IMG/VR virus record: IMGVR_UViG_3300029922_000054
Coordinates: 3,763-67,762 of that record
Source: a virus
Reading direction: 5' to 3' (one strand)
Length of the DNA: 64,000 nucleotides
Under the pieces are notes generated by a model. The model ran no database searches and had not been told where the DNA came from. It was given only the letters and a program-made list of their open reading frames with translations. Both the position numbers and the translations under genes were made by a program. The first letter of the stretch is position 1; each line of letters starts with the position of its first letter. Positions 4,622-54,361 of this stretch are shown piece after piece.

Positions 4622-4748
4622 CCTCCGCCGCGCGGTACTTGCCGTAAGCGGTAGCGTCCGGTCGATCACCGGCAAGCCAGGCGAAAGATGGCACCCATTC
4701 GCAGGACTCACGAGGGTCCTGCCAACCTCTTTACCGGGAGGCAACACC

Positions 4749-15870: not shown

Positions 15871-15960
15871 GGTCCTGCGGGGTACTCTCAAGGCTGTACT
15901 TGGGACTGCGCGCGTGGTCCCGCACTCCAACCAGCAACCCATTTCCTCTGGAGGAAATCA

Positions 15961-16581
15961 ATGTCCGAAGAAAAAGTTCCCGTTATCGGTGGCGCTGTTC
16001 TGGTCACCTTCTACAGCGATACCCTGAAGCTCTCCACGCTCGTCGCTCACGTCCTGGCTATCACCGGCTCGGCCGCAGGACTCGCAACTGCAGACGGCCA
16101 GCCAGCGCTCACCGTAGCCTATCCCGATCCCAACGCTGACCCGGCCATCCTCTCCAGCCCAAACTGGCAGAAGGCCTACATCCGCAAGACCGGCGTGGTC
16201 CACTTCAGTCACCAGTCAGCCGTAGATGGGCAGGAGTCAATCGTCTGGGGCTATCCCGTAGGCGTAAACGATCTTCCCACGCTCATCAAACCGGAAGGAG
16301 CCGCAACCAACCCGATCTTCGAGCGTCCTGTCGATGCCGAGGTTCCCGAGGTTCCGCTGGGGCAGGCTGGTGCGGTGACACTCAGAAGCGAGTCGGAGCC
16401 GATCATGCCAGCCGATCCAACCAGTGCGGAATCCGTTGCCGCGGCGCAGAAGGCTGACGAAGAAAGGCAGGCTGCTGCTACCACGGAAACTGCTGAAACC
16501 ACAGCAAGCGCGACTGGGGGCGAGACGGCTACAGGAGCCACGGAAACCACAGGTGAGGCCACTGGGGGCGCAATCTCCTAG
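15961..16581 (+). CDS. Hypothetical protein with a low-complexity T/A/E/G tail
   Basis: GGAGG RBS; 206 aa. Confidence 0.65.
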   Translation: MSEEKVPVIGGAVLVTFYSDTLKLSTLVAHVLAITGSAAGLATADGQPALTVAYPDPNADPAILSSPNWQKAYIRKTGVVHFSHQSAVDGQESIVWGYPVGVNDLPTLIKPEGAATNPIFERPVDAEVPEVPLGQAGAVTLRSESEPIMPADPTSAESVAAAQKADEERQAAATTETAETTASATGGETATGATETTGEATGGAIS

Positions 16582-16582
16582 C

Positions 16583-16652
16583 CGTGGTACTCTCGCTCGT
16601 GCGTGGAGGCAGGACTCTTATTGGCGGTAGGGGTCCTGCCAGCGGCACCACG
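16583..16652 (+). ncRNA. Putative c4/CI-like three-stem antisense RNA
   Basis: Closing stem CGTGGT/ACCACG, a small hairpin, and a 13-bp stem (16608-20/16628-40) with loop TTGGCGG complementary to three downstream CCGCCA sites. Confidence 0.45.
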
Positions 16653-16797
16653 CCGAGCGGTCGATGCGTCCAGGTGCTCCTTTCCATCTGGACGCTCCCG
16701 CCAAACCTTTTCAGTCACCGCCATGGCTGAAAATAACCCGAAAAATAATCCTTGACAACACTTCACCAGATTCTCTCTGACCGCCATTGGAGACAAC

Positions 16798-17280
16798 ATG
16801 ATCACGGAAGATGAACAAATTGAAGCGATTCGACTTGCTTACCCAAGACGAGTTGCGCCCGACGCTGCAAGAAAGATGATCGCCCGAGCTGCATCCCGGC
16901 TTGTGAAGAAGAAGCGATTCCCAGATGAATATGCCAGCCGTCGGTTCCTCTACAAGAAAGCGGCCGAGTTTGCTCTGAGTCCTGCCGGGCAGCCAGTTCC
17001 CAAAGGAGATCCAGATTACCGGCCCTATCCAGCGACATGGTTCAACGCAGGACACTACGACAACGATCCTGCCGAATGGCAGAAGCCCAACGGGGGAAGC
17101 AATGGTAGACAGAACAGCACTGCAACGAAGGCAGAACGCACAGTTGATGCAGTCAGAGCCGCTGTCTCCCAAGCAGCAGATCATAGTCGCCCTCGGGACA
17201 CTGGCATTGATGAGGGGCGGCGAGTACAGCCAAGCGACGCTGACAGCCTTTTCGGAAGGACTATTGAAGGAACCGTTTGA
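16798..17280 (+). CDS. Putative replication initiator / replisome organiser (C-terminal-type domain)
   Basis: YPRRVAP..A...YRPYPATWFN..HYD motif typical of phage replisome organisers; upstream of the loader and DnaB. Confidence 0.6.
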   Translation: MITEDEQIEAIRLAYPRRVAPDAARKMIARAASRLVKKKRFPDEYASRRFLYKKAAEFALSPAGQPVPKGDPDYRPYPATWFNAGHYDNDPAEWQKPNGGSNGRQNSTATKAERTVDAVRAAVSQAADHSRPRDTGIDEGRRVQPSDADSLFGRTIEGTV

Positions 17281-17629
17281 GGATGTGATTGCAACCATCC
17301 AAAAGATCGCAGAGAGCCCGCGGCGTGACCGGGAAACCGCGTGTCCTGACTTCGGTACGCTTCTGGTGGCCGTCCGGTCCATCCGGCATCCGCAACGGCA
17401 TCTGCGCGAGATTGTGTGCCGTCTGGCGCGCATCTACGGTGTGATTGTAGACGAGGAGATGTTGACCGAATACGAGGCCGAAGCAGGACACAGAACAGAC
17501 GATGACTTGGACAAAGCTCTTGGAGTCCTACGGGGCGATGAGAATCTGAAGCGGATGCCGACGCCGGCACAGTTTCGGGCAGCCTGCGGGATTCCTAAGG
17601 TCTACCGGGATGGGACGAGGCCAGAGTGA
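17102..17629 (+). CDS. Putative helicase loader / replication protein
   Basis: Two helical repeats ending CPDFG and MPTPAQFR, as in G39P/lambda-P-like loaders; overlaps the initiator 3' end. Confidence 0.5.
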   Translation: MVDRTALQRRQNAQLMQSEPLSPKQQIIVALGTLALMRGGEYSQATLTAFSEGLLKEPFEDVIATIQKIAESPRRDRETACPDFGTLLVAVRSIRHPQRHLREIVCRLARIYGVIVDEEMLTEYEAEAGHRTDDDLDKALGVLRGDENLKRMPTPAQFRAACGIPKVYRDGTRPE

Positions 17630-18756
17630 GCAAGCCTATTTGCTATGACGGGTACTGCGTACTTGGGGGCTGGAGCGAAGGATTTCTCTCTGAAGGATAC
17701 CGATGCGTAGGCTTCGACATTGAGGCACACGATTATGGGACCGGGGGCTATCCCGGCGAACTGATACTACGCGACATGCGCCAGGTTCATGGAAGCGAGT
17801 TGAAGGACGCGGCGTGCCTTGTGTTTTCTCCTCCCTGCCAGGAGTACAGCTACATGGCGATGCCGTGGAGTCGCTCAAAGCAGATAGCTAGGGCGTTGCA
17901 GGGGAAAGATGAGTTCCCGGAAGGATACAGCGGATCGCGCTCCGTCGAGCAACTGAACGAGTTATTCAACACATGCTTCCGCATTCAGCGCGAGGCGTGC
18001 GAAGCCGCAGGACACTACATCCCGATGGTGATCGAGAACGTGCGCGGGGCACAGAAGTGGGTCGGCCGGGCGAAAGCGCACTACGGATCGTTCTTCCTGT
18101 GGGGAGATGTGGGCATGGTCGGGAACCGGGTGGTAGCGATCGTTAACGGTAAGATACTGGGGCGCGGAGTGGCACCAATACGAGCTCAGAAGTTCAACCC
18201 AGACGGGACTCAGCACGGGGCCGGATCATGGTTTGCAATTGCCAATAGCCAAAACAGAGGCGCAAATGCTGAGAAGGTGCCCAGTTTCCGCTTCGATGGC
18301 AGCGGCGGTTCGTTTCAGAGTGCGGCAGTGGAAACAGTCGGTCGCAGTCTGAGCAAGGGCGCTTTGAAGTGGGGACCGCACAACATGGGTCCGGGCGAAG
18401 AGATGATGGCCGAGATTGCAGCTAACCAGCGGGAGAGCGATGCGGTGAAAGGGGACGGCTCAGGATGGACGGAGAAAGGTTCGCTCAAGTCGCACAATCG
18501 GCTGGTGGCGAATACTGGCGTGAAACAGCACGGGAGTGGAGCGGCATGGTGGGATGACGCACTCAATGAACGCAGAAAGGAAGCCACTGCCGTCAAGAAT
18601 GGCGGTGATTGGTTCGGTTCAGGAGATAACGCATATGAGCAACGCAAGCACGGCAGTAAGTCTAGCTCTCGCAAGGCCGCATCCGCGCTGATCGCCAAGA
18701 TTCCATTCGCACTCAGCCAATACATTGCTCAATCGTTCAAGCCGGAGGAAGCGTGA
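17626..18756 (+). CDS. DNA cytosine-5 methyltransferase-like protein
   Basis: Degenerate motif I (YCVLGGWSEG), GFDI, catalytic SPPCQ, VIENV. Confidence 0.7.
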   Translation: MSKPICYDGYCVLGGWSEGFLSEGYRCVGFDIEAHDYGTGGYPGELILRDMRQVHGSELKDAACLVFSPPCQEYSYMAMPWSRSKQIARALQGKDEFPEGYSGSRSVEQLNELFNTCFRIQREACEAAGHYIPMVIENVRGAQKWVGRAKAHYGSFFLWGDVGMVGNRVVAIVNGKILGRGVAPIRAQKFNPDGTQHGAGSWFAIANSQNRGANAEKVPSFRFDGSGGSFQSAAVETVGRSLSKGALKWGPHNMGPGEEMMAEIAANQRESDAVKGDGSGWTEKGSLKSHNRLVANTGVKQHGSGAAWWDDALNERRKEATAVKNGGDWFGSGDNAYEQRKHGSKSSSRKAASALIAKIPFALSQYIAQSFKPEEA

Positions 18757-22908: not shown

Positions 22909-22962
22909 CCTCACCGCCAACCGCTCTACCAACCGCCAAGCACCACAGGAGAAGAAGCCGCC

Positions 22963-23388
22963 ATGGCAATCACTGAAGAATCTAACCTCGTCCATCATGC
23001 ACGGCGAGAACTTGAAAACGCAGGCTGGTTTAAAGAGGACTCCGACTTTGGAGGATTAGTCGGTCCTGCCGTCCTCAAAATGGTCGAAACGTTCAGCGAT
23101 GAAGGACACAGCGGGTTCTCTGCTGGGTTGTGCATTGATCTCTTCAAAAGAGTTGCATCGTTCAAACTCCTTTCTCCTATCAAGAATCCAATGGAGACGG
23201 GAGAATACATCGACCACACAGACATAAGCGGTGGCCATCCAGTGTTTCAATCCACTCGTCTCTCCAGTTTGTTTTCAAACGATGGAGGCAAGCACTGGCA
23301 CGACATCGACATTCACGTTCCACGCTGGAGACGCATATTCCTCCGTCAGAACGTGGTCTTAGTGAACTTCCCCTACCTACCGGAGTGA
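22963..23388 (+). CDS. Conserved phage hypothetical protein
   Basis: NLVHHARREL...F..EGHSGFSA...FQSTRLSSLF motif. Confidence 0.7.
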   Translation: MAITEESNLVHHARRELENAGWFKEDSDFGGLVGPAVLKMVETFSDEGHSGFSAGLCIDLFKRVASFKLLSPIKNPMETGEYIDHTDISGGHPVFQSTRLSSLFSNDGGKHWHDIDIHVPRWRRIFLRQNVVLVNFPYLPE

Positions 23389-23403: not shown

Positions 23404-25134
23404 ATGGCAATCACTATCAAGACAGGGAAGGAAGCTCGCGCAGAGATCCTTTCAGGAGCAACGCAACTCAACCAGGTAGTCAGTTCGTCACTGGGCCCTG
23501 CCGGCCGCTGGAGCCTGTTTCGGCACGGCAACATGGTCGTACTCAGCAAAGACGGCGTTACGCTGGCAAACGAGGTCAACCTCCCCGGCGTATACGAGTC
23601 TATGGGGGCCGACCGGCTCAAGGGTGCAGCGCGTCAAGCAGTCGACGAAGCTGGCGACGGGACCACCACAGCCGTCCTGCTGGGCCACGCCATCCTTGAG
23701 GCAGGACACAAGGCCATCAATGATGGTGCGGAGCCTGTGAAGCTCACCCGCGGCATTGAGCGTGCGCGGAAGGCCATTGTGGGCGATTTCGACCAGAAGA
23801 AACGGAAGTTCACAGGCGGCATTCTGGAGTCGTTCGCCATTCCCTGCACTCCGGAGCTTGCTTTTCAGGCAGCGCGGATCAGCGCCAACGGAGACGACAC
23901 GATCGCCAAGGCCGTCTCCGAAGTAGTGCTGAAGGTGGGCACTGACGGAGATGTGACGATCGCCAACAGCTACTCGACAGAGCATTTAGTCGAATTCCAG
24001 GAGGGGATGGGGATCAACACAGGACTCGTACATCCCGGCTTTGTGAATGATGCCTATCGGAACCGCGCCATGCTTGAGAAGGCTATGGTCCTGTGCGTCA
24101 ACAGACAAATCTCAACTTCCGTTGAAGTCGTCAACATCATGAAGAAAGCGGCGCAGAAGGCGAAGTTAGACAATGTGCCATTCTCCCTGTTGGTGATCGC
24201 TGACGAGTACACACCCGAGGCGTTGGGACAGTTCCTGCATCACCGGAAGCCGCAGAACTTGGGCGGCGATGGGCTGGAGATCGCCATCGTTCGGGCGCCA
24301 CTCTTCAAGGACTCGCGCCGGGATATTCTTGAGGATATTTGCCTGCTGACCCAGGGAACTCGAGTAGAGAACCCGCAGGGGAAGGCGCTCGAACAGTTGA
24401 GCGTCAACTCTTTCGGTCTTGCCGAGCGCGTAATCGTCACCCAGAGCCGGACCACAATCACTGCCGGCACGTCCGATGACGACTACAGGACCAGTACCAT
24501 CGAGCCCTACCTCGCGCGCCTCAAGGCCATGTCGGAAGACACGTCACTGCGCGCAGACGAGATCAGCACGCTCAAGAGCCGGCTGGCAGCTCTTACTGGC
24601 GGCGTGGCCGTCATCAAGGTTGGCGGGACCAGCATCAACGAAGTGGAGAAGCTGAAGTTCCAGGTAGAGGACGCCATCCACGCCACACGGGCAGCCGTCT
24701 CAGAGGGCGTTGTACCGGGCGGCGGTAGCGCGCTGCTGTTCGCCAAAGAGGCAGCGTCCGACGTTGACGATGACTCGCTACTGGAGGACTCAGACGAGAG
24801 CAGGGGCTACGTGCTGCTGCTCGACTGCCTCTCGAAGCCCATCCAGCAGATTGCTTTGAACGCAGGGTACGACGGAGAGAAGATCGCTCAGGCCGTACAT
24901 AATGCGAATCATGGTCCTTACGCAAACGACCGCAATGGCTTCGACGCTTCCACAGGACTCTACCCTGCAGACATGTTTGAGGCTGGTATTGTGGATCCAC
25001 TTCGAGTTGTCCGCTCGTCACTCAACGCCGCGGCAAGTGAAGCCTGCTTGCTCCTGCTCACCGAGGTTGTGCTGGGCAACATTCCAGAGCCAGCACAGCA
25101 GCAGATGAGCGGCCAAGTCGGTCCTCGTCGGTAA
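23404..25134 (+). CDS. groEL: Chaperonin GroEL (divergent)
   Basis: LGPAGR, KDGVT, AGDGTTTA, ISANGD, GGVAVIKVGG, EDAIHATRAA.EGVVPGGG, GIVDP. Confidence 0.95.
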   Translation: MAITIKTGKEARAEILSGATQLNQVVSSSLGPAGRWSLFRHGNMVVLSKDGVTLANEVNLPGVYESMGADRLKGAARQAVDEAGDGTTTAVLLGHAILEAGHKAINDGAEPVKLTRGIERARKAIVGDFDQKKRKFTGGILESFAIPCTPELAFQAARISANGDDTIAKAVSEVVLKVGTDGDVTIANSYSTEHLVEFQEGMGINTGLVHPGFVNDAYRNRAMLEKAMVLCVNRQISTSVEVVNIMKKAAQKAKLDNVPFSLLVIADEYTPEALGQFLHHRKPQNLGGDGLEIAIVRAPLFKDSRRDILEDICLLTQGTRVENPQGKALEQLSVNSFGLAERVIVTQSRTTITAGTSDDDYRTSTIEPYLARLKAMSEDTSLRADEISTLKSRLAALTGGVAVIKVGGTSINEVEKLKFQVEDAIHATRAAVSEGVVPGGGSALLFAKEAASDVDDDSLLEDSDESRGYVLLLDCLSKPIQQIALNAGYDGEKIAQAVHNANHGPYANDRNGFDASTGLYPADMFEAGIVDPLRVVRSSLNAAASEACLLLLTEVVLGNIPEPAQQQMSGQVGPRR

Positions 25135-28125: not shown

Positions 28126-31100
28126 CTACTTCCTTCTGGCGGATTTGATGGCATTGATGCGCTTCTTGTCGAGGAACGGTTTCAGCTCTGTGCGCTCTGC
28201 CACTGTCGTCTTGGGGTCATCATAGACGGCCTTGGCGTCAGTATAGCTGAGGGTCTTGAAGATGCGCTCCAAGTAATCGAGGTTCTTGGCCCTCGCTGCG
28301 GCACGGATGCTGTGCCGAGTTGGTGTCTCCTGTGAATATGCGCGATCCGCTTGCTGCTCTGGAGTTAATGGTGTGTGAGGATGGGCCACGTCCCTCAGTT
28401 CGATTGCTTGGCTGAGAGCGTGGGAGCGGTCCAGGCTCTTCGGCGCGCCACCAATTAGGCCGGTGAACCGCTCAGCCTTGCTTGCGGGGTCCTGCGGGCC
28501 GTAGGTGCGCAGCCAGTTGTCCGCGGACATAGGCGTCAGATCGCCGACGGCGTTGTATTTCAGGCCCTGCCACATCTGCACGTAAAAGGGATCGTTCGGG
28601 TTGAAGATGTAGTCGCCCTGGTAGGTGCGGTTCATTGCCGTGTTCCAGGCATTCACCGCCACGTCAGAGACCTTGCCTTTGGCGTAGCGGCCGGGGTTCT
28701 CGTAACCGTGCTCGTAGTCTTTGAGTCCTGTCGGCCACGACATTCTGATAGGCTCACCGTGCGCGTCCAGGGGTCCAGTACGGGGGTGCATTGCCTCCAG
28801 AGCAGAGTTGGTCTCGACCGACATGCCGTTGTTCTCTGTGTCCTGTTGCGCCCACTCCCAAGGGAACTTGTCAGTCGCCAGTTTCTCGGTCACGCTGCCG
28901 AGGGTGCTGGTCAACAGAGCCATTGACAGTATCCAGCCAGCATTGACGCCGAGCTGCGGCAGGCGGGATGTAGCGCGCCGGGCCTGACTCAGCCAGTTGC
29001 CTTTCTTCGCCTGCGCGTCCATCTTCTCGAACATCTTGTCGTCGAACATTTTGGAACTCGCCTGCTCCTTCACGGCCTGAGCTGCGCCGCGCCATGAACC
29101 GATGGCCCAAGTTGCCGAGCGGAAGAAGAATTGCATTGCGCTCTTCAGGTCGTTGTTGAGATAGAGAGAATCCCAGTTCAGTTCACCAAAGCGGTTGTCG
29201 GTAGTCTGCGCAACCTCGCGCGCAATCTCCTCTTCTGTCCTCTCGCCAGAAGCGATTGCGTAGCTATACTGCGCAAGCTTGGTAGAAAGCAATTCAACGG
29301 CAAACGCCCACTTCGACCGCGGGATGTAATGGTTGAACAGCGGGGTCATCAGACCATGGCTGAGCCACGGGAGGAACTTGGCAATCCCCTTGCCGATCTC
29401 TCCATCCTTCCAAGCGTCGAGGCAGTGGTCGCCAAACGACCCTTGGAACTGGCCGGCAATGTTCCAACGCAGACCGCCGGTGAAGAGCAGTTCCATCAGG
29501 TGGGGGAAGTCTGGATACCGCTCGGCGAACTTCTTGCCTTCGGGAGATTCGAGGAACTCATCCGGGTTCCGAGCGTACTGAACGATCTGGCCGCCGCGCT
29601 TGATGGCCGTGTAGGGAGCAACCATCGTTTTGGCTATGTCCGCGAGTCCTGCGGAAACCTTGGTCGGATCCAGTCCGCGAATGCCTTGATTGACCACCTT
29701 GTCCATGCCGGTGTTCAGGACAGACGCCATATTCTCGACGGTGATGTAGGCCCAGTGGAATGCCGAGATCGCCAACTTCATCTCGGTGGAGAAGTTCTTG
29801 AGCTTCACGAATGCGCTCAGGACCTCACCGCCTTTGATGTGGTCGACGCTCAGGTAGTTGTTGAGCAGACGGGCTGCGTCCTTTTGAATGATCCAGCGTC
29901 CTGTCTGAACCGGGAAAGTGTCGCCATCGACCGATTGAACCATGCGCCATACGTTGCCGCTCTTGTCGTCGACGTAGGAGTAATCCTTCGGCAGCTTCTT
30001 GCTGCCCTTCAGGAACATCGCCAGCCCCTGGTCCTTGAAGTTGTACCAGGCGTACCGGGCCGCTACGAACTTGGCACCCTCCTGCAAGCGCCTGAGCAGC
30101 ATCTCAACAGGATTGCCCAAAGGAACTGCGCCATCGGCCACCGCTTCCTTGAGGGTGTACCGCTGCTGCTTCATGAATCCCTTGGAGCCTTCGAACGGCC
30201 GGCGGGACACTTGGCCAAGCCGGGCTATCTGCTGATCCTCTGTCAGCGCCTTCTCGCCTCCCGGCGCCACCTTGTAGCGGTTGGGGAAGTAGTTGGTCTT
30301 GTCGCTCAACTCCACTTCCTGGTTCTTGCGCTTGCCCAGGTTGATCGCTACCTGTTCGCGTAGCCTCTGCTGGCTTAGTACCTCTTGCATGAACTCCTGA
30401 GCGTTCTGCAGGTCCTGCGTGGGTTGTTCTTTGCCCGTCTGCCAACGGTCAACAAACTCGATGCGCTCTTCAGGGGATAGACTATCGAGCATCTGGCTGA
30501 TGCTGTGCAGGAACTGACCAGCCTCGAAGAGACGAAGTGCAGGCTCTCCCAGTGCTTTTCCCATGATGTCGAGCGCATCAGTATCAGCTACAGAGGCGGG
30601 GGCAAACGCCGCAGCAACCTCATGCCCCATAGCTTTAGCACTCGCCCCAGCCATCTTCACCGCGCTGGTAGCTTCTTTCCATGTGGCTACTGTTGCTTTC
30701 TTGGTGTAGTCCACGACGGGCTGCAAGAGCTTCGTGGCTAGCGGGTCCAGCGCTCCCATACCCAGGAAGGACATTGTGACCGAACCCTTTGCGCGCTTTG
30801 GCATCTTCGGCTTGTCGAGTTCAGTCTTGGCCTTCTCGTCATGCTCGCGCGCTTTATCAATGTGCTCAGGATTCGCGTAGAGCGAAATCTTGCCCATGAT
30901 GGCTTTGAGCGCATCCAGTTCCCGGCCATCTTTGATCGTGGCTTTCATCAAGCCGTTGCTCGAAGCGAATTCTCCGCCCTGCACTGTATCAAGCAACTTG
31001 GGATCAAGGAAGAACTTGCCGGCCGCAGACTTTGAGGTCTTGGTCTTGATCTCGTAGCCTTCTCTGCGATTGGACGGCCCCACCACGCCGATCTCTTGCC

Positions 31101-34100
31101 CGCTGCTCTGGAGATATGCGTCTCCTGTTTCGAGGAACGAGAGCGCTCCCTCTGGCGTCCGCATGGCGTAGGTTCCGTTCACGTCGGACTTGATGTCGAA
31201 CTTGGACGGCATCAGGATTCCGAGTTTCGTGGTCCCGTCTTCCATCGTGAAGCTGATGATCCTGCCTTTGGATCCAGTCTTCAGTTCGCCGTATGCGCCC
31301 AAGAGGTTGCCGGTGATGATCTTGGCCTTCTGCCGATCGCTGCCATAGTCCTTGAAGAGTTGCCGTACGTCTGCGTTACGTCCCAGGTTAGATGTGACCA
31401 ACGCATCCATCTGTGAGCCGGGCACCTTGGTCTGCCGCAGGCCACTGTTGACCGCAATGGTGAACTGGAGGGCCGACGGGGCATAGGGGTTGCCGGATGG
31501 CTTCTTGGCGCCCTCTATGTTGGTGATGATGCCGTTGTACTGCTCCCCGTTGAGTTCGATCCGGACTCCGGTGCTCACACGGTAATCATTCAGAAGCTGG
31601 CGGCCGCGGGTGCGCATCTGCTGCGCGCGCTCTATCGATCCCTCGTTTGTGAGTCCTGTGACGTACGGCTTGTAAAGCTCCTCGAAGTGTGCGGCTAGGT
31701 CACGTGCAGCCAGCGTGTCACGCTCTCTTGGGGGAAGCTGCATTGCAGCAGGACCGAAAGTATCGGCGATCTTCTCCATAACCTCTTCAGGAGTGAACGG
31801 CTTGCCTTGACGCTTGATTGAATACTCGCCGTATTGCGCGTCCTGTCCGAATGGCGAAGTGGGATCGATGCCCTGGTACATCCGCTCGATATGGTTCTCT
31901 CGCGCTGCAAAGTCATAGGTCCGGGGCTCCAGATCATTCTGGCCGGTCTCGTCGAGGAAGTCGATGTAGTTGGTGTATGCCTCCGAGATCGAGTCCATGA
32001 ACTCTTGCTGTTGAGCAACAGGAAGAAGAGCAGAGTGCCCGGTCGCCTTCATGGCCAGCCCCTCATTGCCTGTCGGTTCGCCTTTCTCGTTCGTGTCGGC
32101 CTTCAGGCCCAACAGCCGCGCCATCTCCGGGTTGTCGGACAGGTACTGCGCGACGATCTTGTCGCCGTACTTGTTCATCAGGTCGACGGCCTTGACCGAC
32201 GTCGCCGCGCGCGTGTTGCTCGAAACGTTGGCGTTCAGCGACTTCATCTTTTTGGCGAGGTTGATGGCCGGTCTCTGCTCGGCCGGGAGCGCCGCAGCCA
32301 GCATTGTGTATTTCGGCAGGACCATCTGTCCGGTCCTGTTGACGCGACCTAGGATCTGCATGACGATGTTCACGTCGCCGGCAGGCTGCCCGACGATCAT
32401 ATGCCGGGGGCGCTGGTCGCGGAACTTCTCGCCCGCGTGGAGCGAGATGCCGGTAGATCCTGCGCGGTTGATGATGAGCGCGTCCAGACCGCCGTTGTTG
32501 AACTGCGTGGCCGTGTTCACCCGGTCCTTGCGCTCGATGCCGGGCACTGTCGCCAGCTTGGGAACATCCCCGCTATAGTCGATGCGCCAGTTGCGCCCGG
32601 TGATCTCTGCGATCTTGTAGCCAGCCTTCTCCACTTTGGCGCGGATGTAGTCGATGGGTGAAACAGGAAGATCAACCTGGAGCGCGTCAATGAGCGCCTG
32701 AGTCTCGTCATAGGCTTCACGCACCTGTGGGCTCAGATCGTCCAGCGGAACCTCCACGCGGTTCTTGTTGCCCATCGGGTCAGTCTCGTTGTAGTAGCGC
32801 GTCCGCATCAGGGCCCGGTCGCTGATCCGCGAGTAGTCGAGTCCTGCGAGGGAATCGCCTTCGCTCAGGTTGTGGCCCTGGATGTAGCTGTCGAGGAAAG
32901 CGCCCATGGTATTTTCAAGGGCGAACACAGGCTTTTCTCCGCGCTCAATTGCGGCGATGATCTCGTTGGCTGCCGTATCGGCCTTGAGCGCAAGAAGGAG
33001 CTGTTTGACGAGGTTGTGGACGATGGACGAGAACTCCATGTGCTGCACAACGACGCCCTTGCTCTGTGCGCCCCCGCCTTTACGCTTGGCTTCCTTTTGA
33101 ATCCTGTCGAAGTCGAGGTTATGGAATAGAGCATCGGCCTTCACAATACCCCGCAGGACCTCAGTCACCTTGTCGGAGATGCGCGTGTGCTCGGCCTCGT
33201 TCTTCTCGTCCACGACGTTCTTTATGTCGATCCCGTCGAAGGAACGCTCCCGGCGCACGAACTGGCCAGTCTCGGCCAGCAGGCTTGTGAGGACGGCTTG
33301 GAGCGGTGCGCCGCCGGCGGTGATGGCGTCTGCAACCAGCGCCCGGTCGGGGATAGCTGTCGATATGTCCGTCATGCCAGCGTAGAGCGGGAGATTGTCG
33401 GGACGCTTCGCCCAGGTGGCAGAGAGGAAGACAACGCCTTTTGATCCTGTCAGCAACTCTGAGAGGAAGTTTCCCGTGTTCGAATCGCCGCCGGCATTAT
33501 GGCTCTCGTCGAGGATGAATATTGCATTCGGCGCAATCCGATGCAGGGTGAGCTGCTGCCGGTTGTCCGTGTTGATCTGCGAGTACGTGAGGAAAACCGC
33601 ATTACGTCCCTTTGGTAGTTCCCCGGTTTCTCGTATCCTCTCGAGCACAGGACGCATAGCGCCTGGATTCTGGAAGATCTTCGCTCCAGTCTTCGGGTCC
33701 GTGATCGAGGCATCGGCATTGAAGAGCAGCGGAGAAATGGTCTGGCCAGAGCCAATGTCCTGAAGGTCGGCATACATGGGGGAGAACAGCGGCGCGCTCT
33801 CGGTCACAAAGATGGGGATGTGGCCATGCAGTTCAGCCCAGCGGATCATGGCGGCTGCCACGCGCCCCTTGCCGACGCCAGTCTGGTCGCCGATCACCGT
33901 GCCCTTGCCGCGCTGCATCTGGTAGATTGCCGCGGCGATGGCGTCCGTCTGGATGCCCATGAACGCCTCGTGCATCGTCTCCACGTCCGGATATCCGAGT
34001 TGGTCGGTGACCCACTGATCAATGTCGCCTACCTCATCAGCAATCCTGTCCATGGCTGTCTGCATGGGATCAATCAGGGCCTTTGGCGCCATGACCGCTA

Positions 34101-37100
34101 CATCCTTCTTCGAGGAGTGCGGCCGGTAGCTGGTCTGGAACTGATTGGTTTCGTCCGCTAGAGCATTTGCAGAATGTCCATCAGGCTCGGCAGTTCCTCG
34201 TCTGACAGTTCGCGGGGCGGGTTGTCCTTCTGCCAGTCGATCTGACCGAGCAACATCGCCATCCGGTCTAACTGTGCTATCTGTGGAGCCCACTCTTGGA
34301 CTGGCGACCCGACCGCTATGTGCGATAGGTCCGGGCTGGGGCTCGGTCCCCCCATCGCTTCCAGTTCGCGCCGGGCTCGCTTCGGGTTCTCCTGAATCAG
34401 TCGGTCGATTGCGTCCTGTAGCAGTTCTGGATACTGCTCCGGTGTCGGCGCTTTCGTCCCGCATGGGACCGCCAGCGACATTGTCGGCCGGTCGTTGCCC
34501 TGCAAGATTGGTGCCCAGATGTTCAGCGGCTTTGTCATATACTTCTCCCCATGTTTTCAGGCGTTGGATGGCGGCGGCGTCCGGGCTAACTTTGGCGGAA
34601 CGAACACGGCCGTCGATTGCAATCATGCGAACAGGGTAGGATGCGCCCTGGCGCGAGTAGAGGTCGCCTTCCAATTCGAAGTCGGAGACGACGTTGTAGT
34701 GGGCGTAGAGCCAGTTGAAGAACGGGCGGACTTGGTTCGTGATCTCGCCCGGCTTCTCCCGGTCCCCGGCGGCGATGATGATGGCTGCCTTTCCAGCATC
34801 CTTCATCGCTCCCAGAGCCTTGGCAACTATCAGATGGTCCAGCTTGACTACGTTGTAGCCATCGACCTTGACGGGTCCTGCCAGCGGCCCGAATGGGGGA
34901 TTGGCGACTACCGCATCCTGGCGCTTGGTAGGACCCCACACGGTTGCATCTTGACGGGTGACGCTGAAACCTTCATATTCAAGCGTCTGAGCGCGCGCCG
35001 GGTTCAACTCATTCGCCAGCGTCAGTTCAGGATTGGCAGCGATCAGCAGTGCGCCATTGCCCGCTGTCGGCTCGTAGACGGTGGCCTGCTTGTCGATGCC
35101 CGCGAACCTGTCAGCGATGAATGCCAGCGGAAGCGGCGTCGAGTAGGCCTGATTGGCGATGCTGGTGCTGGTCCTGATGGAGAGATTGGGCTGCCCCTCG
35201 TAGAGCGAGACCAACTTATTGAAAGCCTGCTCATTCGTAAGGCCGTGGCCATATCCTTCAGTGCGAGCAACAATGTCGCGCCCGGCCCGGTTCAGCATGG
35301 CCTCATAGGCTTCCTGGCCTTCCTTCATTCGAAGTTGGTCAGGTTCCTGTCTGTCGTACAGTTCGACAAGGTTTTTCAGGTCGTTGTAGTTTTTTGGAGC
35401 ACGGCCGTTTTCGAAGCGATCTTGAAGATAATCAACCAGCGAGGTACCGTGAGTCTTCTTTGCGGGTTCCGCAGAACTCTCGATCGGCTTCACATCCTCG
35501 ATGTTCTTGTTGACCGTCGATCCGTTGTCGGTGACTCGAACCTTTTTCCCGTCTGTCCAGGCTACTTCTCCGGTGAGCTCCTTGCCCTTGTTGGTCCTAT
35601 AGGTTACCTTGTCGCCCTTGGCCAACGGGCGCGCTACTTCCCGTTTTGCTCCACTATTTGCGGAGAGCGGCCTGCGCGGTCCGGTTATTGATGATTCGAG
35701 TTCGATGGTAGATTTCGGCACGACTCCTTGATCTAGGGGATCGTTTGGATCGTAGCCGCGCAGTTCGTTGAATTTATCGGTTGGGATGTCCACATATTGA
35801 AGTTCTGCCCCAGAACGATAGTTCCGTGCATAATTTTCGTCCGTAGAGAACCACGCAGGACCGTCGTAGCGCCCATGCTGCGCGCTTCCGTGGTACAACC
35901 GCGTCGTCTCGTTGTTAGCCGGTTTCATCTCTTCGACTAACGGCTGGCTAACAGACTTTTCAACCGGCTTGAGTCCTGCCTTGAACTGCTCCTCGGTGAG
36001 TTCCGTCCCGAACGCCAGATTGAAGTCGAAGAAGGGTTTGTCGCTCGGATCGTGATTCGTGGCCGCAACCGCGAACGAGGAGAACGCGGCCCGCACCTTG
36101 TCAATCGGATCGTCCAGCTTCTTGAGGATGGCCTCAACGACAGGACCTTGATCGTGCGTATCCAGCCCACGGAAGATTTGCCCGTACCGCTCTGTGGCCG
36201 CGACGATCTGGTCTTGTAGGTTCCAGCCTTCACCGGCTGACTGGATACCCTTGATTGCGCCCATGGTGCCTAGAAGCTTCTGTTTCAGGAACTCGGGCGT
36301 TTGCTCTATCACTGCTGGTGGCAACAGTTCGGCGAGTAGGGCATCCCCTACTTTGGCTTTGGCGGAAGTGGTCAGTAGTCCTGTTTTTGGGTTCACGTTG
36401 TCTGCACTATTGGTGATAATACCATCGTTCACCAGAGCCTGAGCGATAAAGTTTCCGGTGTCCTTGTGCCGCAGAACGTCGTCCAGCGTGGCCGTGGGGT
36501 CTGTTGAGGCGTGGTCATCGACCAAGACGGTGAGTCCTGTTGCGGCCTCGGGCGGGAGAGTGATCGGCTCCGGCATAGTCCCAGCCTGAGAGAGCAACTT
36601 GAGCGGCCCGTCTTCCGGGTTGGAGTCTTTCGCTAGTTTCTTGAGGGCTTCTTTGACCCGGCGCGCATGGGGTTGGAGTCCTGCCGTCGTCCCGAACTGG
36701 TCCCGGTAGTATTGCAGGAATCGGTCTTGCGCTTTGTTGGGCGTCTTCTGGGTTAGAGTGTATGCAGCCAAGTCGGTTGGGTCTTCAAAGTCAACCTCAA
36801 AGTTCTTGTCGCGGTATCCGTAGCGAGGCTTCGACTTAGAGAGGTCGGATGGCAGGACGGCACCCTCGGGCTTCTCTACGAGTTCAACGTCGCGGGGAGG
36901 GCCAACCGCTTCCGCTCCGGCTGCTCCCTGTTCCTGCCGAGCCTCCAGCATCTCCCCATCCCCGGCGCCACGGTGGGTCAGTTCCCTCAACTTCTCGGTC
37001 GCGGCCTGTTCACGCGGAGTCGCCGCTGGCACCTGAGAGACTTCCTCCGTCTCAACGTCTTCGGACTTCAGCTCGACCGGCTTCTGCTCGGGAGCTTCGC

Positions 37101-39411: not shown

Positions 39412-39978
39412 CTATTGTGCTCCTTTGCCGGTCTTCAAATAGCTCTGCATCTTCTGCAAGATTTGAAGTTGTCTCGGTGAATACATGGTATTTCCAGATT
39501 CCTTTTGTCCTTGTCGCCCTTCACCTTCATTTGCAATCCATCCCCTTAGATATGCGTCATAGGTGGGGTTCCCGTGTGGTCCTTTGGACCCATTAACGTC
39601 ATCCCACCATGTCTGGCGTTTCTGCTGGCGAGCGCTTTCCTGCGGAGTAAAGCTCTGCATGAACTGAGTGCGTAGACCATTCCAATATGGATCGCTAGAC
39701 ATCCCGTGCATGAGGTCTCCATAGACGGCCTGTTTCAGCGCGCCGGGATTATTCCTTAGTTTTGGGTCGTAGATTTCGAGAGCGTTCTTTCCAGGAGCAG
39801 GGTGTGGGAAGTCAGAAGTCCCCGCATCGTTGGACGACCAAAACTCTAAACCGCCACGTTCTTTTAGTCCGCGTTGCGCACGTTGACCGTTGGCAAACAC
39901 CACAGATGTATTGTTCGAGTTGAAATTCTTGGCTAACCCAGGATTCTCACTCAGCACCTGTTGCAAAACGGGATGCAC
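39412..39978 (-). CDS. Hypothetical protein (possible virion-associated)
   Basis: 188-aa ORF between the ejection genes. Confidence 0.55.
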   Translation of the reverse strand: MHPVLQQVLSENPGLAKNFNSNNTSVVFANGQRAQRGLKERGGLEFWSSNDAGTSDFPHPAPGKNALEIYDPKLRNNPGALKQAVYGDLMHGMSSDPYWNGLRTQFMQSFTPQESARQQKRQTWWDDVNGSKGPHGNPTYDAYLRGWIANEGEGRQGQKESGNTMYSPRQLQILQKMQSYLKTGKGAQ

Positions 39979-40004
39979 GGGAGCGGTTTGAGGAGCGCCG
40001 CTCC

Positions 40005-41513
40005 CTACTGAGGGTTTGGCGGTCCCAAGCCGCCTCCTGCTTGCTGTGCTCCAACAATCAATTTTCCCGTCTTAGGATTGAGCCCTTTGACCACCGCAGG
40101 CTTGCCATTGACCATGACGGTCTGGCCGGGCGTGAAGGTCTGGCCCTTGTACTGGAAGGCACCAGCTTGCTGCTGCGGGGCTTGTTGTGCCCGTGGAGCG
40201 GCTGGTGCCGGCGCGGCAGGACTCGCTACCCTCTGGCCGCCCCTGCTCCAAGTAAAGTCGGGATTGATTGTCATGTGCCCTGGGCCGCTCGGATCTACTC
40301 CGATCTTCTGCTCGAACGTGTCCTGTATCGACTGCATCTGTGTGGCTGCATCCTTGGGTGACAAGGTTCCCGCCTGCAGAGCAGTCTGTGCTGCTGTCAT
40401 ATCGTGCTGCTTGGCTTGTAGGATCACGTCCTTCTGGGCCTGGGTCATCCCCTGGTTCCTCGGTGCCACAGCGCTCCCATCCGGGTTCTCGCGGATGTTG
40501 ATGTTGGTCCTGACGCTCGGCGTCACCTTGCCGCCGCTGGCGACGATGGCGCGCTGTTCAGGAGTGAGCTTCACTCCAGAGGCTTCGAGCGCCTTCAGAG
40601 TGGCTACTCCCTTTTGGGCCTGGGCATTCGCTACGTTCTGCGGCTGCTTCTCCCAGTTGGCAATCCACTTGTCAGGCGGCGGTACATTTTTGATGGTCCT
40701 GCCGTCGGCTGTCGTTCCGGTGCCCCCAGCGTAGGGGTTGTTCGGATCGTCGGGGGTGAATGCTGTGATCGCATTGCGCCGCGCCGCGGCCTGAGCTGCA
40801 AAGTTCCCTGCGCGTGCCGCATCCTGTTGGGCGATGATTCGGTTTCGGTAATCCGACTCAGCGATGCGCCCCTGCTGTTCGGCTGAGGCATTTGCTCTCT
40901 GAGTTGCCGCGTCCTGCGCCTGGTCAGCGCCGATCCTTGCTTGGATAGGGGCCTCATCACGTGCCCATTGTTCTCGCGCTCGGTTGGCAGGAGCTTCATT
41001 GACGGCTTCCGCGACCTTCATACCCTCCGCAGGATTACGCGAACCAAAAGCTACTGCTCCACCGGCAAGAGCTGCTCCCAGACGCCGCCAGCGACTCGGC
41101 TTGATGTTCTGCCCAGCCTCTTTGGCCTTCTGCACCTGCATGGCGGCGTAGTCGGCTGAGTGATCTGCAAACGGTGAGAGGGAAACAGCCGCAGGTGCAG
41201 TGATTGGCTTGTACGGATCTTCCGAACTGTCTACAGGTTGGCCAGAGACAGCATACTGCGCGGCTCCCGTGTCGCCATCTCCACCAACTTCAATACCAGA
41301 AAGGTCCTGCCCCTGGGTTTCAGGCTGCTCGGAAGATTGCCTATAGGCTGCTGCGTCATCCACCGGAACGACTTCAGGGGTACCCTGCTGTCCACCCGGT
41401 TCCGCAGGACTCGGAGTCTCGTTCTCTGAATCAGGTTCAACCGGGCCGCCAGAGAAGTCAGGAGCAGCACTCTGGGGAGTTTCTTCTTCTTCGTCTTGGC
41501 TAAAAAGTGCCAT
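40005..41513 (-). CDS. Putative DNA ejection / internal virion protein
   Basis: A/Q-rich, GAALAGGAVAFG segment, upstream of the giant protein; GGGGAG RBS. Confidence 0.6.
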   Translation of the reverse strand: MALFSQDEEEETPQSAAPDFSGGPVEPDSENETPSPAEPGGQQGTPEVVPVDDAAAYRQSSEQPETQGQDLSGIEVGGDGDTGAAQYAVSGQPVDSSEDPYKPITAPAAVSLSPFADHSADYAAMQVQKAKEAGQNIKPSRWRRLGAALAGGAVAFGSRNPAEGMKVAEAVNEAPANRAREQWARDEAPIQARIGADQAQDAATQRANASAEQQGRIAESDYRNRIIAQQDAARAGNFAAQAAARRNAITAFTPDDPNNPYAGGTGTTADGRTIKNVPPPDKWIANWEKQPQNVANAQAQKGVATLKALEASGVKLTPEQRAIVASGGKVTPSVRTNINIRENPDGSAVAPRNQGMTQAQKDVILQAKQHDMTAAQTALQAGTLSPKDAATQMQSIQDTFEQKIGVDPSGPGHMTINPDFTWSRGGQRVASPAAPAPAAPRAQQAPQQQAGAFQYKGQTFTPGQTVMVNGKPAVVKGLNPKTGKLIVGAQQAGGGLGPPNPQ

Positions 41514-52377: not shown

Positions 52378-53061
52378 TCAATCGAAGATGCGTTCGCGCT
52401 CCATGCGCCTCAGTGTCTGCTCTGGAGTCTCGCCGGGGAGCATTTCCCACGAGCAACCGACACATCCACCTTTCCATGACCCGCTGCGCTCTCCCACTTC
52501 ATCGTTGAACGCAACATCTATGGTCTGGCGAGATTTCTCGAAGAGTCCTGCCCAGGTGAACCCTGTCGGGCGCCACGCTCTGCGATCGACAAATACCGTC
52601 GCCGTGCGCTCCTGCACTTCCCCGCGCTTGAGTTTGTACTGGTAGGAGAAAGTGAATTCTTCCCGTCCATCGCTGCCTTTTCCCTGCTCCCACGAGCCGA
52701 TGAATGGAACCCATGATCCGTCGGCGCAGCGAACTTCGTGACGTTGGAAGACGCTTGAGAACCATGGCAGATTCCAGAATTTGCTGTGTTCATTCCAGTG
52801 GAAGTGAACCGCGTCGTCGCAGAGTGAAAAGCCATATTGCTGCCAATCGCGCTGCCATGCTTCCTGCTTTGATTTGGGGCGGAACGCGAAAGGGAAGTGG
52901 AGGAACAGATTCAACAACAGGAAGTGGAAATGCAGCATCCACGGCGAACCGTATTCTGCATCGTGGTCAAAGATGAAACAGAAGGCGAGGCCGAATCGCT
53001 TCCAACTGAATTCAAAGAATCCGGGGACTCGAAGTCCCCGGCTTTCTGATATGACGTGCAT
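52378..53061 (-). CDS. Conserved phage hypothetical protein (W/F-rich)
   Basis: GGAGG RBS; EVGERSGSWKGG...LRRMERER motif. Confidence 0.65.
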   Translation of the reverse strand: MHVISESRGLRVPGFFEFSWKRFGLAFCFIFDHDAEYGSPWMLHFHFLLLNLFLHFPFAFRPKSKQEAWQRDWQQYGFSLCDDAVHFHWNEHSKFWNLPWFSSVFQRHEVRCADGSWVPFIGSWEQGKGSDGREEFTFSYQYKLKRGEVQERTATVFVDRRAWRPTGFTWAGLFEKSRQTIDVAFNDEVGERSGSWKGGCVGCSWEMLPGETPEQTLRRMERERIFD

Positions 53062-53104: not shown

Positions 53105-54361
53105 CTACTCCTTTTCTGTCTTTTTTGCAGATTCCTTGGATTTTGGCGTCATGGCCTCTGCGACTGCCGTGGCAATCGCCGTGCCTGTCCGAGTGGCGTC
53201 AATGGCCTTGTACTGATCTTCTGCTTTCATCAGGCGCATCGCGCTCAGACTCTTGGGCTTGATACCGCCCTGCTTCAAGCGCGCTGCCTTCTCTTCGCAG
53301 GACTCGGCCACGTAGTCCGAGATGCCCATCTCTATCAAAGTCTTGCGGGAAAGGCGTTCCAGAGACTCATCCTCTTCCGTGATGGCGTTGATCTCGTAGG
53401 CCTTTCGTGGGTCCAGCACATATGGGCCGCGCAGACCGCCGCAACCTGGATTTGTGCAGGACACAGCGCCAGGCTCGCACCGGCGCGCGCACTGTGGGCA
53501 AGTTGGGGGCTTTGTGTCCAAATCGCGCTTTTTCTCGACCCAGTCTGGTAGGACCTGGATATGACCCAACTGAAAGAGCCGCTGTGCTGAAGCCTTCTCG
53601 GGATAGCCGGGACGCTCGTGCGCACGCTTGCTGAGGTCCATCGTAGTACCGCGGCTGAGGCGCTCAAACATCCATGCCACGCCGCTCTGTCGTTTGGCCT
53701 CCAGAGCCTCGCCGTAGGTCATGTTGTTGTGCTGCGGCTCCCGGCTCATGGACGCAAGCCACGTAGGATCTTCGAGCAACTCGGCCATCTTGCGATGAAC
53801 CTCATCTTTGCTCATGCCATGCGTGCTGAAGTTTCCCTGGTAAACGAAAACTCCGGAGGGATTGGTCTTGCTGAAGTCCTCTGCCAACTGAATGGGAGCC
53901 CACTCGAAGGCTGTCGTAGGACTATCGACGTGCTGTTTTGTGTTGTCGATGAAGTATTCAGGGAAGACATAGAGCGCATACGGCTCTTTGTGCTGCGGCG
54001 GCTTGATGACGGCCGTCTTGAGCGGGAAGAGGTAGGAGTCGCTTCTCAGCTCGATCGGCAGGAAGCTGACCACGCCGGCCGCGATGGTTCCCAGGCTCCT
54101 GATGCGTCCCTTGACGCTGCGCTCACTGCGCTCGAATGCCGGATCCGTTTTCCGACCCATGGCCTTGTGATCGAGTGTCGGCAGAGTGACCGTCTCCCGA
54201 TTGCCCTGGGCTGTCACCACGGTTACCGATGCCTCCGCGCCGATGCGGGGTCCGTTTTCGCTTCCCGCGAGATCGCGCTCGTGCGCTACATCGGCAGGAG
54301 TGGCCTGCTTGGTGATTGCGTTTCCGGTATAGCCTTTTGCTTTGAGATCGTTGACTTCCAT
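53105..54361 (-). CDS. Hypothetical protein with a zinc ribbon
   Basis: 418 aa; CPQC...CTNPGC. Confidence 0.7.
   Translation of the reverse strand: MEVNDLKAKGYTGNAITKQATPADVAHERDLAGSENGPRIGAEASVTVVTAQGNRETVTLPTLDHKAMGRKTDPAFERSERSVKGRIRSLGTIAAGVVSFLPIELRSDSYLFPLKTAVIKPPQHKEPYALYVFPEYFIDNTKQHVDSPTTAFEWAPIQLAEDFSKTNPSGVFVYQGNFSTHGMSKDEVHRKMAELLEDPTWLASMSREPQHNNMTYGEALEAKRQSGVAWMFERLSRGTTMDLSKRAHERPGYPEKASAQRLFQLGHIQVLPDWVEKKRDLDTKPPTCPQCARRCEPGAVSCTNPGCGGLRGPYVLDPRKAYEINAITEEDESLERLSRKTLIEMGISDYVAESCEEKAARLKQGGIKPKSLSAMRLMKAEDQYKAIDATRTGTAIATAVAEAMTPKSKESAKKTEKE

Follow-up and report, generated by a model that had tools for sequence, protein, structure and literature searches.

A conserved, strand-specific structured RNA element upstream of phage replication genes

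The window analysed here is a 64,000-nt stretch of viral DNA (bases 3763-67762 of the 67,762-bp IMG/VR record IMGVR_UViG_3300029922_000054, estimated completeness 99%) with a GC content of ~57%, in which the genes lie on the plus strand up to ~25.6 kb and on the minus strand beyond. In the plus-strand arm, a 216-nt gap (16582-16797) separates a 206-aa open reading frame (ORF) without family, the stop codon of which occupies 16579-16581, from the first gene of a replication block. The neighbourhood of the gap comprises an SbcC-like ATPase gene, HNH endonuclease genes and two family-less ORFs (212 and 206 aa), and downstream of it lie, in this order, a 160-aa ORF, an overlapping 175-aa ORF, a methyltransferase-like ORF, an HNH gene and the gene for a DnaB-like helicase. 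The gap folds strongly on the plus strand only and holds a conserved, strand-specific structured RNA element upstream of the replication genes. One of the hairpins of this element, P2, carries the apical loop UUGGCGG, and three CCGCCA sites complementary to this loop follow further along the same leader (Table 1).

A first-pass annotation of this DNA had called the 160-aa product an initiator. What stands is a weak similarity to initiators or helicase loaders: the protein resembles replication-initiation proteins of phrog_270 (E 3.9e-6) and is 34-36% identical to proteins of two phages of Tunturiibacter (Acidobacteriota), its only named relatives, whose genes are annotated as 'replication initiation protein' and 'helicase loader'.

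Table 1. Coordinates of the leader features, the adjoining ORFs, candidate targets elsewhere and the leaders of related phages (window coordinates unless a locus is named)
Feature	Coordinates	Strand	Remarks
Upstream ORF, 206 aa, without family	15961..16581	+	ends 12 nt 5' of the element
P1, 5' strand, CGCUCG-U-GCGUGG	16594..16606	+	pairs with 16648-16659, U16600 bulged; covariation, minimum free energy (MFE) fold
P2 hairpin, 13 bp (16608-16620 with 16628-16640)	16608..16640	+	loop UUGGCGG, 16621-16627
Asymmetric internal loop AGCGGCA (1x7)	16641..16647	+	3' side, between P2 and P1; identical in 3/3 copies
P1, 3' strand, CCACGCCGAGCG	16648..16659	+	covariation
P3 hairpin, 11 bp, 8-nt loop	16666..16695	+	shape kept, sequence diverged
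Single-stranded CUCCCGCCAAA, invariant	16695..16705	+	holds site 1, CCGCCAA, 16698-16704; 3/3 copies
Hairpin 3, UUUUCAGUCA-CCGCCA-UGGCUGAAAA (TTTTCAGTCA/TGGCTGAAAA)	16708..16733	+	site 2 is the 6-nt loop, 16718-16723
TTGACA, conserved -35-like hexamer	16752..16757	+	without acceptable plus-strand -10
Ribosome-site hairpin UCUCUGA-CCGCCA-UUGGAGA, 7 bp	16774..16793	+	site 3 is the 6-nt loop, 16781-16786
First replication-block gene, 160 aa, initiator or helicase-loader-like	16798..17280	+	weak similarity
Candidate trans targets, C/A-rich leader of GroEL-like gene operon	22913..22963	+	ACCGCCAA at 22913 and 22932; CCGCCA abuts ATG (22958)
Candidate trans target ACCGCCAA	53077..53084	-	2 nt 5' of AAGGAGG of 227-aa gene (52378-53061)
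Candidate trans target ACCGCCAA	54379..54386	-	2 nt 5' of ribosome site of 418-aa gene (53105-54361)
Type B leader of relatives	L002 2620-2800; L029 4720-4905; 14 further loci

Fold and conservation of the leader

The plus strand of 16575-16800 folds with a predicted energy of -90 kcal/mol (z -5.37), a value reached by none of 200 shuffles, compared with z -0.63 for the minus strand of the same region, which 49 of 200 shuffles reach. The P2 stem contains U.G pairs, in place of which the opposite strand would have C.A mismatches. Among 12,784 80-nt windows from both strands, the P1-P2 hairpin ranks second in stability (-44.5 kcal/mol, against a mean of -20.9 with a standard deviation of 5.4).

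Copies of the element are known from the window and from two other records, namely G001 (68,943 bp; loci L007, L009 and L020), which was reached via the upstream protein, and G005 (28,005 bp, 41% complete; loci L045, L048 and L057), which was reached via the conserved 175-aa protein. The three copies, those of the relatives being in L007 and L045, are 73-85% identical across the gap. The upstream ORF of G001 is a homologue of that in the window (73% amino acid identity), the one in G005 differs from it, and in G001 a gene for an AAA ATPase replaces the 160-aa gene directly behind the same leader. The element thus remains with the replication block while the neighbouring genes change.

Base pairing is maintained in both stems that can be aligned. 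In P1, all 36 cells of the 12 pairs are paired in the three copies, with three two-sided changes (CG/UA/UG, GC/AU and UA/GU), and in the 13 pairs of P2, 38 of the 39 cells are paired, with two compensatory pairs and four one-sided changes that keep the pair. Jointly, 74 of the 75 cells form standard pairs, five of the 25 pairs are changed on both sides and four more on one side with pairing kept. When the 3' partners were slid by 1-3 columns as a control, 32-44% of the cells were paired and no compensatory change was seen. The P3 hairpin has few conserved columns and a different loop in each copy, and independent MFE folds put it at the same place in all three, with 11 bp in the window, 12 bp in L007 and 16 bp in L045.

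These data replace the three-stem fold of the first-pass annotation with a different architecture backed by covariation. The positions in that annotation were correct throughout (CGTGGT at 16583-16588, ACCACG at 16647-16652, the 13-bp stem with its TTGGCGG loop, and CCGCCA at 16698-16703, 16718-16723 and 16781-16786), as was its view of a multi-stem RNA-like element upstream of the replication operon, which proved to be conserved and strand-specific. The closing stem CGTGGT/ACCACG, however, is lost in the homologues (CGTGCT in L007, unrelated bases in L045) and competes with the covarying stem 16594-16606/16648-16659, and the supposed small hairpin at ~16590-16608 is actually the 5' strand of the outer stem P1 and is not kept. 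The inverted motif pair proposed to build the 13-bp stem is real: the P2 arms have CAGGAC and GTCCTG, and no other hexamer of this genome is as strongly over-represented.

No conserved ORF spans the element, every frame being broken in at least one of the three copies. A small protein hidden in the element, considered as a candidate, was ruled out because no frame is open across all three. A 10-codon ATG frame at 16722 lacks a Shine-Dalgarno sequence; L045 has a GTG frame of 5 codons in its place, and L007 has none. We consider it highly probable that this is a functional structured RNA.

An intercistronic hairpin of the RNase III type, acting in processing or stability, would account for part of this anatomy: cleavage in the AGCGGCA loop would separate the upstream and the replication mRNAs, and the CCGCCA repeats would be unrelated or bound by protein. 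A 12-bp lower stem, a 1x7 internal loop invariant in all three copies and a 13-bp upper stem, situated between two genes, recall the RNase III processing signals of the T7 early mRNA, and the rank of the hairpin among the 80-nt windows fits as well. This reading leaves unexplained the invariant apical loop and its three complements located in loops or single strands, and on its own we consider it improbable, but it does not exclude the other RNA readings and could hold alongside them.

The search for further copies was constrained by the fact that the contig collections could be reached by sequence patterns only. In viral contigs, an exact 21-mer returned nine stretches (one true homologue and eight of unrelated GC-rich coding DNA) and a gapped pattern four, of which two were true and both previously known. 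The gapped pattern returned five stretches from metagenome contigs, none of them true, and six from genome contigs, none true by the covariance model; a scan with a promoter-to-ribosome-site pattern gave two known copies only. The covariance model R1, run over 354,485 and then over 121,791 bases of loci, found the three training elements only, the next-best match (19.2 bits) falling on the complementary strand of the element in the window itself. In Tunturiibacter phage Tunturi_1, the intergenic region 5' of the homologous gene folds (z -3.05), with no UUGGCGG loop or CCGCCA repeats seen in the folded sequence and no R1 match in L055.

Comparison with known families was similarly negative. When the whole window was scanned by cmscan with all 4227 Rfam 15 families, which should include the C4, c4-2 and isrK models singled out by the first-pass annotation, none reached its gathering score, and the same families gave no match at E <= 10 on either strand of 16300-17000. 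If the pairing model set out below is right, the element would represent a new RNA family undetected by any Rfam model, and even if that model is wrong, it would still be a well-supported structured RNA in the most conserved module of these phages.

Loop complements and a pairing model in cis

The first-pass annotation described the YUNR-type loop UUGGCGG as complementary to repeated CCGCCA in its own leader, with one copy at the ribosome-binding site, and this description holds. A YUNR-type loop start (UUGG) is of the U-turn type. Within 160 nt 3' of the hairpin, CCGCCA occurs three times against 0.11 expected, a count reached by none of 20,000 dinucleotide shuffles; the corresponding figures downstream of P2 in the other two copies are 2 against 0.07 (P 0.0016) and 3 against 0.07 (P 5e-5). 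Over the whole window, CCGCCAW is found 42 times against 23.4 expected. Site 1, with CCGCCAA, is complementary to the P2 loop over 7 nt and is a candidate for pseudoknot pairing with it, and sites 2 and 3 are precisely the 6-nt loops of predicted hairpins. The predicted unpaired probabilities in the window are 0.59, 1.0 and 0.94 for sites 1, 2 and 3, respectively, and the seed duplexes of the sites with the loop have energies of about -12.7 kcal/mol (-12.6 for site 1).

Site 3, described in the first-pass annotation as abutting the GGAG, ends 2 nt before that GGAG (16789-16792) of the first replication gene, and this Shine-Dalgarno sequence is located in the 3' arm of the site 3 hairpin in all three copies, with the ATG at 16798. 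The hairpin has an energy of -4.9 kcal/mol in the window and L045, and of -6.8 in L007, where a U to C change makes a G.U pair a G-C pair; CUCUGACCGCCAU at the ribosome site is invariant in the three copies. Hairpin 3 (-10.4 kcal/mol), with its CCGCCA loop, is present in the window and in L045. Three hairpins with mutually complementary loops of 6-7 nt, one of them holding the Shine-Dalgarno sequence, make for a clear prediction, and this arrangement strongly suggests that the replication operon is controlled post-transcriptionally.

The complementarity exceeds the loop, in that CUCU in the 5' arm of P2 matches GGAG and GGGG or GGAG in the 3' arm matches CUCU. A nested fold that opens P2 and pairs it with the region of the ribosome site hides the Shine-Dalgarno sequence. 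This fold is the one with the MFE in L007 (-78.2 versus -74.4 kcal/mol) and in L045 (-94.3 versus -81.8), with ensemble pairing probabilities between the loop and site 3 of 0.96 and 1.0, respectively. In the window, the local fold is better than the nested one by 8 kcal/mol (-83.2 versus -75.2). The elements therefore look bistable, the nested fold winning in the two relatives and the local fold in the window. Kissing of the loops would be a natural route between the two folds; kissing of 6-7-nt loops is beyond the scoring of the folding programs used.

The model that emerges can be put as follows. Between the 206-aa ORF and the replication block, the gap would encode a sense-strand structured leader RNA, which read-through from upstream most likely joins with the replication genes on one transcript. 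The P2 loop would dock on the CCGCCA sites by loop-loop ('kissing') or pseudoknot pairing. At the ribosome-site hairpin, docking could extend to a duplex of 18-20 bp, with CUCU from the 5' arm of P2 paired to GGAG; such a duplex would keep the ribosome site closed, and the replication operon would be translated less. The balance would depend on sites 1 and 2 as competitors for this loop. The data show the structure, its strand specificity, its conservation with compensatory changes, and a loop and sites that are complementary and accessible; that these pairings form, that they affect translation and that the effect is repression are all inferred, and we assign a probability of roughly 45% to the reading in which the sense-strand leader controls translation of the first replication gene via loop-loop pairing in cis.

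Several observations weigh against this reading. The loop and all sites are identical across the three copies, with zero co-variation for any loop-site pairing, which is why we infer that pairing and do not report it as shown. In the nested ensemble of the window, the loop-site pairing probability is 0, in line with its preference for the local fold. The L007 copy lacks hairpin 3 and site 2 altogether. With three copies only, the statistics are thin, and 8 of 500 shuffles reach the covariation values of P1 and P2. The P2 arms are copies of a genome-wide motif, so that the conservation of P2 may be partly at the DNA level. Finally, should the conserved TTGACA between hairpin 3 and the ribosome site form a promoter together with an atypical -10, transcripts would begin close to or within site 3 and would not include P2. 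The rules used here for promoters and ribosome sites are of the E. coli type and may not be those of the host.

One position changes in a manner that suits several pairings simultaneously. The U at 16619 is a G in both relatives and its P2 partner A16629 is a C in both, and U16788 in the ribosome-site hairpin is changed to C in G001 alone; since that position serves several pairings, these changes are not clean evidence for any single one. In favour of the model, a scan for plus-strand promoters of the sigma-70 type between P2 and the ribosome site found none.

Some further sequence likenesses within the element were noted. An extended -10-like motif, TGnTACTCT (16585-16593), just past the stop codon, is kept in the three copies with three different upstream contexts; it is not taken as a promoter because a start 5-9 nt downstream would cut the covarying lower part of P1. 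A resemblance of CUCUUA in P2 to boxA/nut was dropped, as it is absent from the homologues, and the likeness of GGUAGGGG..CCUGC to helix 45 of 16S rRNA was judged coincidental.

Repeated motifs elsewhere in the genome

The CAGGAC/GTCCTG motif that makes up the P2 arms occurs in 186 copies in this genome versus ~41 expected, and each of the five related phage records shows a 4-5-fold over-representation on both strands. Between 8326 and 61243, the 146 copies comprise 75 in sense and 57 in antisense orientation and 14 in intergenic regions, with all three frames represented, and the 9-mer GCAGGACTC alone has 38 occurrences. The presence in all reading frames and both orientations marks CAGGAC as a DNA-level signal. 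Inverted pairs are found, for example, at 4702, 4945, 5940, 16610, 20399, 32317 and 58575, and P2 may have arisen from such a pair. The 5'-arm motif of P2 has been lost in G001 (L007) by C-to-U changes that preserve the RNA pairing.

The inverted pairs at 4702, 4945 and 5940 give hairpins upstream of ribosome sites. An early-region hairpin of this kind in G001 (L020, G001 26990) has a loop, UCGCCAAUGG, in which six nucleotides (CGCCAA) are complementary to the P2 loop; its orthologue in the window, at 4702, has a different loop, UCACGAGG.

This motif bears on a reading at the level of DNA, in which TTGGCGG and CCGCCA(A/T) would be sites, either iterons or an operator, that a DNA-binding protein of the phage recognises where the replication block has its origin or promoter, and the P2 palindrome merely an inverted pair of an abundant motif. 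Initiator genes often adjoin their own binding sites; here, four copies of the core, one of them inverted, lie within 170 bp at spacings of 20 and 63 bp, near whole helical turns, and the CAGGAC surplus is itself a DNA-level signal. Sites 1 and 3, however, are 83, 67 and 89 nt apart in the three copies, which means that the helical phase is not kept, and the conserved core is just 6-7 bp. The compensatory changes in P1 and the shape-kept P3 are unexpected for double-stranded DNA, the G.U pairs render the structure strand-specific, and the RNA pairing stays in L007 where the CAGGAC of the P2 5' arm is gone. On balance, sites at the DNA level make a quite improbable explanation of the element.

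The 8-nt loop complement ACCGCCAA is likewise over-represented, with nine copies in the window against 2.17 expected (sd 1.44), a number that none of 100 shuffles reached; one of these is simply the loop's own complement. Of the remaining eight, four are located, in sense orientation, within 50 nt 5' of a start that bears a Shine-Dalgarno sequence (22913, 22932, 53084 on the minus strand and 54386 on the minus strand). Its repetition beside the ribosome sites of the chaperonin and capsid-region genes hints that the loop could act in trans. The P1-P2 hairpin (about 66-75 nt, 16594-16659) would then be cut from the operon transcript and accumulate as a riboregulator of the c4/CI type, its loop pairing with (A)CCGCCA(A) tags at the ribosome sites of several phage mRNAs and timing their translation; the targets would be the replication operon, the GroEL-like gene operon, the SbcC-like nuclease gene and two capsid-region genes. 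If such ACCGCCA tags are functional, riboregulation of a single target would widen to a phage-wide regulon.

Several features of the candidate targets are consistent with this. The leader of the chaperonin operon is unstructured (z +0.96), its duplexes with the loop have energies of -13.0 to -13.6 kcal/mol, and its sites recur in G001 (3/3) and G005 (2/3). The site of the 418-aa gene is kept in G001 at 9306; this gene has no match in PHROG, and 'capsid-region' is a label from position only. Wherever G001 and G005 possess the gene in question, the candidate sites are found again. Overall, the seed duplexes range from -11.6 to -13.6 kcal/mol, and 1.9% of the background windows reach -11 and 0.3% reach -13. 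The CI RNA of P4 is likewise processed from a leader and controls replication genes, according to the relevant passage of PMC4825925. The enrichment near starts, in contrast, is modest and comes from a crude gene set (of 76 upstream windows, 5 contain CCGCCA versus 1.4 expected, and it is not a top hexamer), and scoring of full-hairpin duplexes against all start regions did not pick out these genes. G001 and G005 are closely related, so that their conserved leaders are weak evidence; the element-free relatives G002 and G003 are without homologous structural genes, so presence and absence are not comparable; and no processing signal was identified in the leader. We treat these sites as a lead and regard a discrete trans-acting RNA as rather unlikely. 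Its furthest extension, a 'master' hairpin built from an inverted CAGGAC pair and cut from the leader, with a U-turn loop UUGGCGGU reading the 8-nt tag ACCGCCAA beside the Shine-Dalgarno sites of unrelated operons in a genome-wide timing circuit of a probably Acidobacteriota-infecting lineage, would be a long shot.

The most stable 80-nt stretch of the whole window, 39971-40050 (-45.8 kcal/mol on the plus strand), lies between two minus-strand genes and includes ACCGCCAA on the minus strand (40016-40023), where the fold has a z of only -1.9. In the window, a 141-aa ORF separates the gene for the phage-encoded GroEL-like chaperonin (23404-25134, plus strand; phrog_5725, E 1.4e-97) from its leader, which in G001 and G005 lies immediately before that gene.

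Known systems, related leaders and genome setting

The functionally closest system is the CI RNA of P4 immunity (pairing of seqB with seqA and seqC): in the passage of PMC4825925 that treats it, a processed leader RNA pairs with repeated complements and shuts down the P4 replication genes. As far as that account goes, both are sense-strand RNAs in the leader of a replication operon, with one short sequence facing repeated complements on the same transcript, and both would govern the expression of their carrier's own replication genes. P4 CI is presumably filed in the Rfam C4 family, whereas the present element has no C4 match. Here, moreover, all targets are downstream of the loop and one is in a hairpin that sequesters the Shine-Dalgarno sequence, which points to translational control more than to premature termination.

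The first-pass annotation had compared the element with c4 of P1/P7, and the parallel is only partial. C4 RNA is a discrete molecule of ~77 nt released from the operon transcript by RNase P; its two loops (a' and b') have their complements in paired target elements that precede icd/ant, and the loop-target pairing takes place at a ribosome site. Common to both are a sense-encoded RNA upstream of its targets in one operon and the pairing of loop to target, which is a proposed one here. The likeness fails in that there is one loop with three sites here, against two loops and two target elements in c4, and in that the downstream genes are initiator- or loader-like and DnaB-like, not icd/ant; the immI operon is c4-icd-ant, with C4 repressing ant, in the part of PMC8198154 that describes it.

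In sequence logic, the element is closest to stem-loop I of the I-complex plasmids, and the kissing-loop logic is common to both. In these plasmids (IncI-alpha ColIb-P9, IncB and IncK), the 5'-rUUGGCG-3' loop of stem-loop I forms a pseudoknot by the ribosome site of repZ/repA and is the target of RNAI; a leader peptide (repY/repB) is translationally coupled to rep, and the pseudoknot activates translation. The mechanism was reportedly worked out by Asano and Mizobuchi (1998) and Asano et al. (1998). The RNAI-SLI kissing complex is the subject of the relevant section of PMC10724649. What is shared is a UUGGCG loop in the leader of an initiator gene and a complement directly 5' of the Shine-Dalgarno sequence, a likeness of sequence and position only. 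In contrast to the plasmids, there is no conserved leader peptide in the three copies, the complement is in a hairpin loop and present three times over, the carrier is a 68-kb phage, and the geometry suggests repression where the plasmid pseudoknot activates. If the common UUGGCG loop does reflect a common mode of action, it would be a notable convergence or a very old shared solution.

Taken literally, the I-complex (or CopA) model would make the P2 stem-loop the target of a minus-strand antisense RNA, and the binding of this RNA would keep UUGGCGG from forming an activating pseudoknot with the CCGCCA beside the ribosome site. Apart from that arrangement of loop and CGCC beside a rep ribosome site, typical of the I-complex, it can draw on a promoter-like site on the minus strand, TTGTCA-17-TATTTT (16758-16730), which overlaps the TTGACA hexamer and has a plausible counterpart, CTGTCA-16-TATTTT, in L045. 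The site is poor in L007, which lacks an acceptable -10, and no convincing conserved gene for a countertranscript emerges: there is no terminator after the P2 complement, the minus-strand fold is unremarkable, the leader peptide is missing and the Rfam antisense and countertranscript families give no match over 16300-17000. We consider a countertranscript system very unlikely here. The element, then, works like these systems if the cis pairing model is right, but belongs to none of them because defining features of each (two loops, icd/ant, the leader peptide, a clear countertranscript) fail; the model would bring loop-loop control of replication genes, in the style of plasmids and P4, to large uncultured phages of soil and peat.

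Among 19 loci that encode the 175-aa protein, one has the present element ('type A'), 16 have another leader ('type B') and two lack upstream sequence. Type B leaders (G002, G003 and 14 further loci) occupy the same place upstream of the same replication block and share with type A the TTGACA...TGAC block, GGCGGTAG and CGCTCCCG. They have tandem TTGACA/TTGACT boxes with a TACCTT -10, and their sigma-70-like promoter, TTGACT-17-TACCTT, is upstream of the structure, unlike in type A. The covariance model finds no P1-P2 in them, and GGCGG is in a stem, not a loop. They possess a hairpin with compensatory changes (CCCAGAGG/CCTCTGG, CCTCTGGG/CCCAGAG and CCTCTGGGG/CCCCAGAG) and a 12-bp hairpin whose loop UCCUUCA complements the ribosome site UGAAGGA, both being invariant in all 12 distinct sequences. 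The type B loop would thus pair with the Shine-Dalgarno region itself and the type A loop with a neighbouring tag, so that RNA pairing to the first ribosome site of the operon may be a theme of this lineage.

The wider setting offers limited clues to the host. A distant-mode search of named-phage DNA with 15900-17700 gave zero matches, as did named-phage proteins against the 175-aa ORF. In species-representative prokaryote genomes, 324 pattern matches to the 175-aa protein included no relative, and therefore there is neither a prophage nor a host clue from this source. The most enriched hexamer 5' of the starts of window genes is AAGGAG, indicating that the host uses ordinary Shine-Dalgarno sites. 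The sequencing runs that carry the stretch are DNA runs labelled as peat metagenomes, with no RNA run listed, and reads from four of them yielded identical contigs and one L007-type contig, with no new variants. The first-pass annotation had attached weight to the lack of a recognised CI-like repressor or integrase; of 10 left-arm ORFs scanned against PHROG, nine have no family and one is of unknown function, which is no evidence either way.

A giant ORF of 3760 aa (28126-39408, minus strand) has Strawberry-notch-type helicase domains (PF13872, PF13871 and ResIII) and a methyltransferase-like segment at residues 1412-1599, and is reminiscent of the giant anti-restriction protein DarB of P1. 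The idea of an N4-like system, with the giant protein as a virion RNA polymerase and the hairpins as its promoters, was discarded, given these Sbno-type helicase and methyltransferase-like segments and the lack of a polymerase in this ORF.

The 160-aa ORF and the 175-aa ORF (17102-17629), the second in the +1 frame, overlap by 179 nt, a layout found in all four relatives. The overlap is the best-conserved stretch of the region: 11-13 of its 179 positions differ from G002 and G003, compared with ~45% upstream and 23% downstream. Such unusual conservation points to dual coding or a programmed frameshift.

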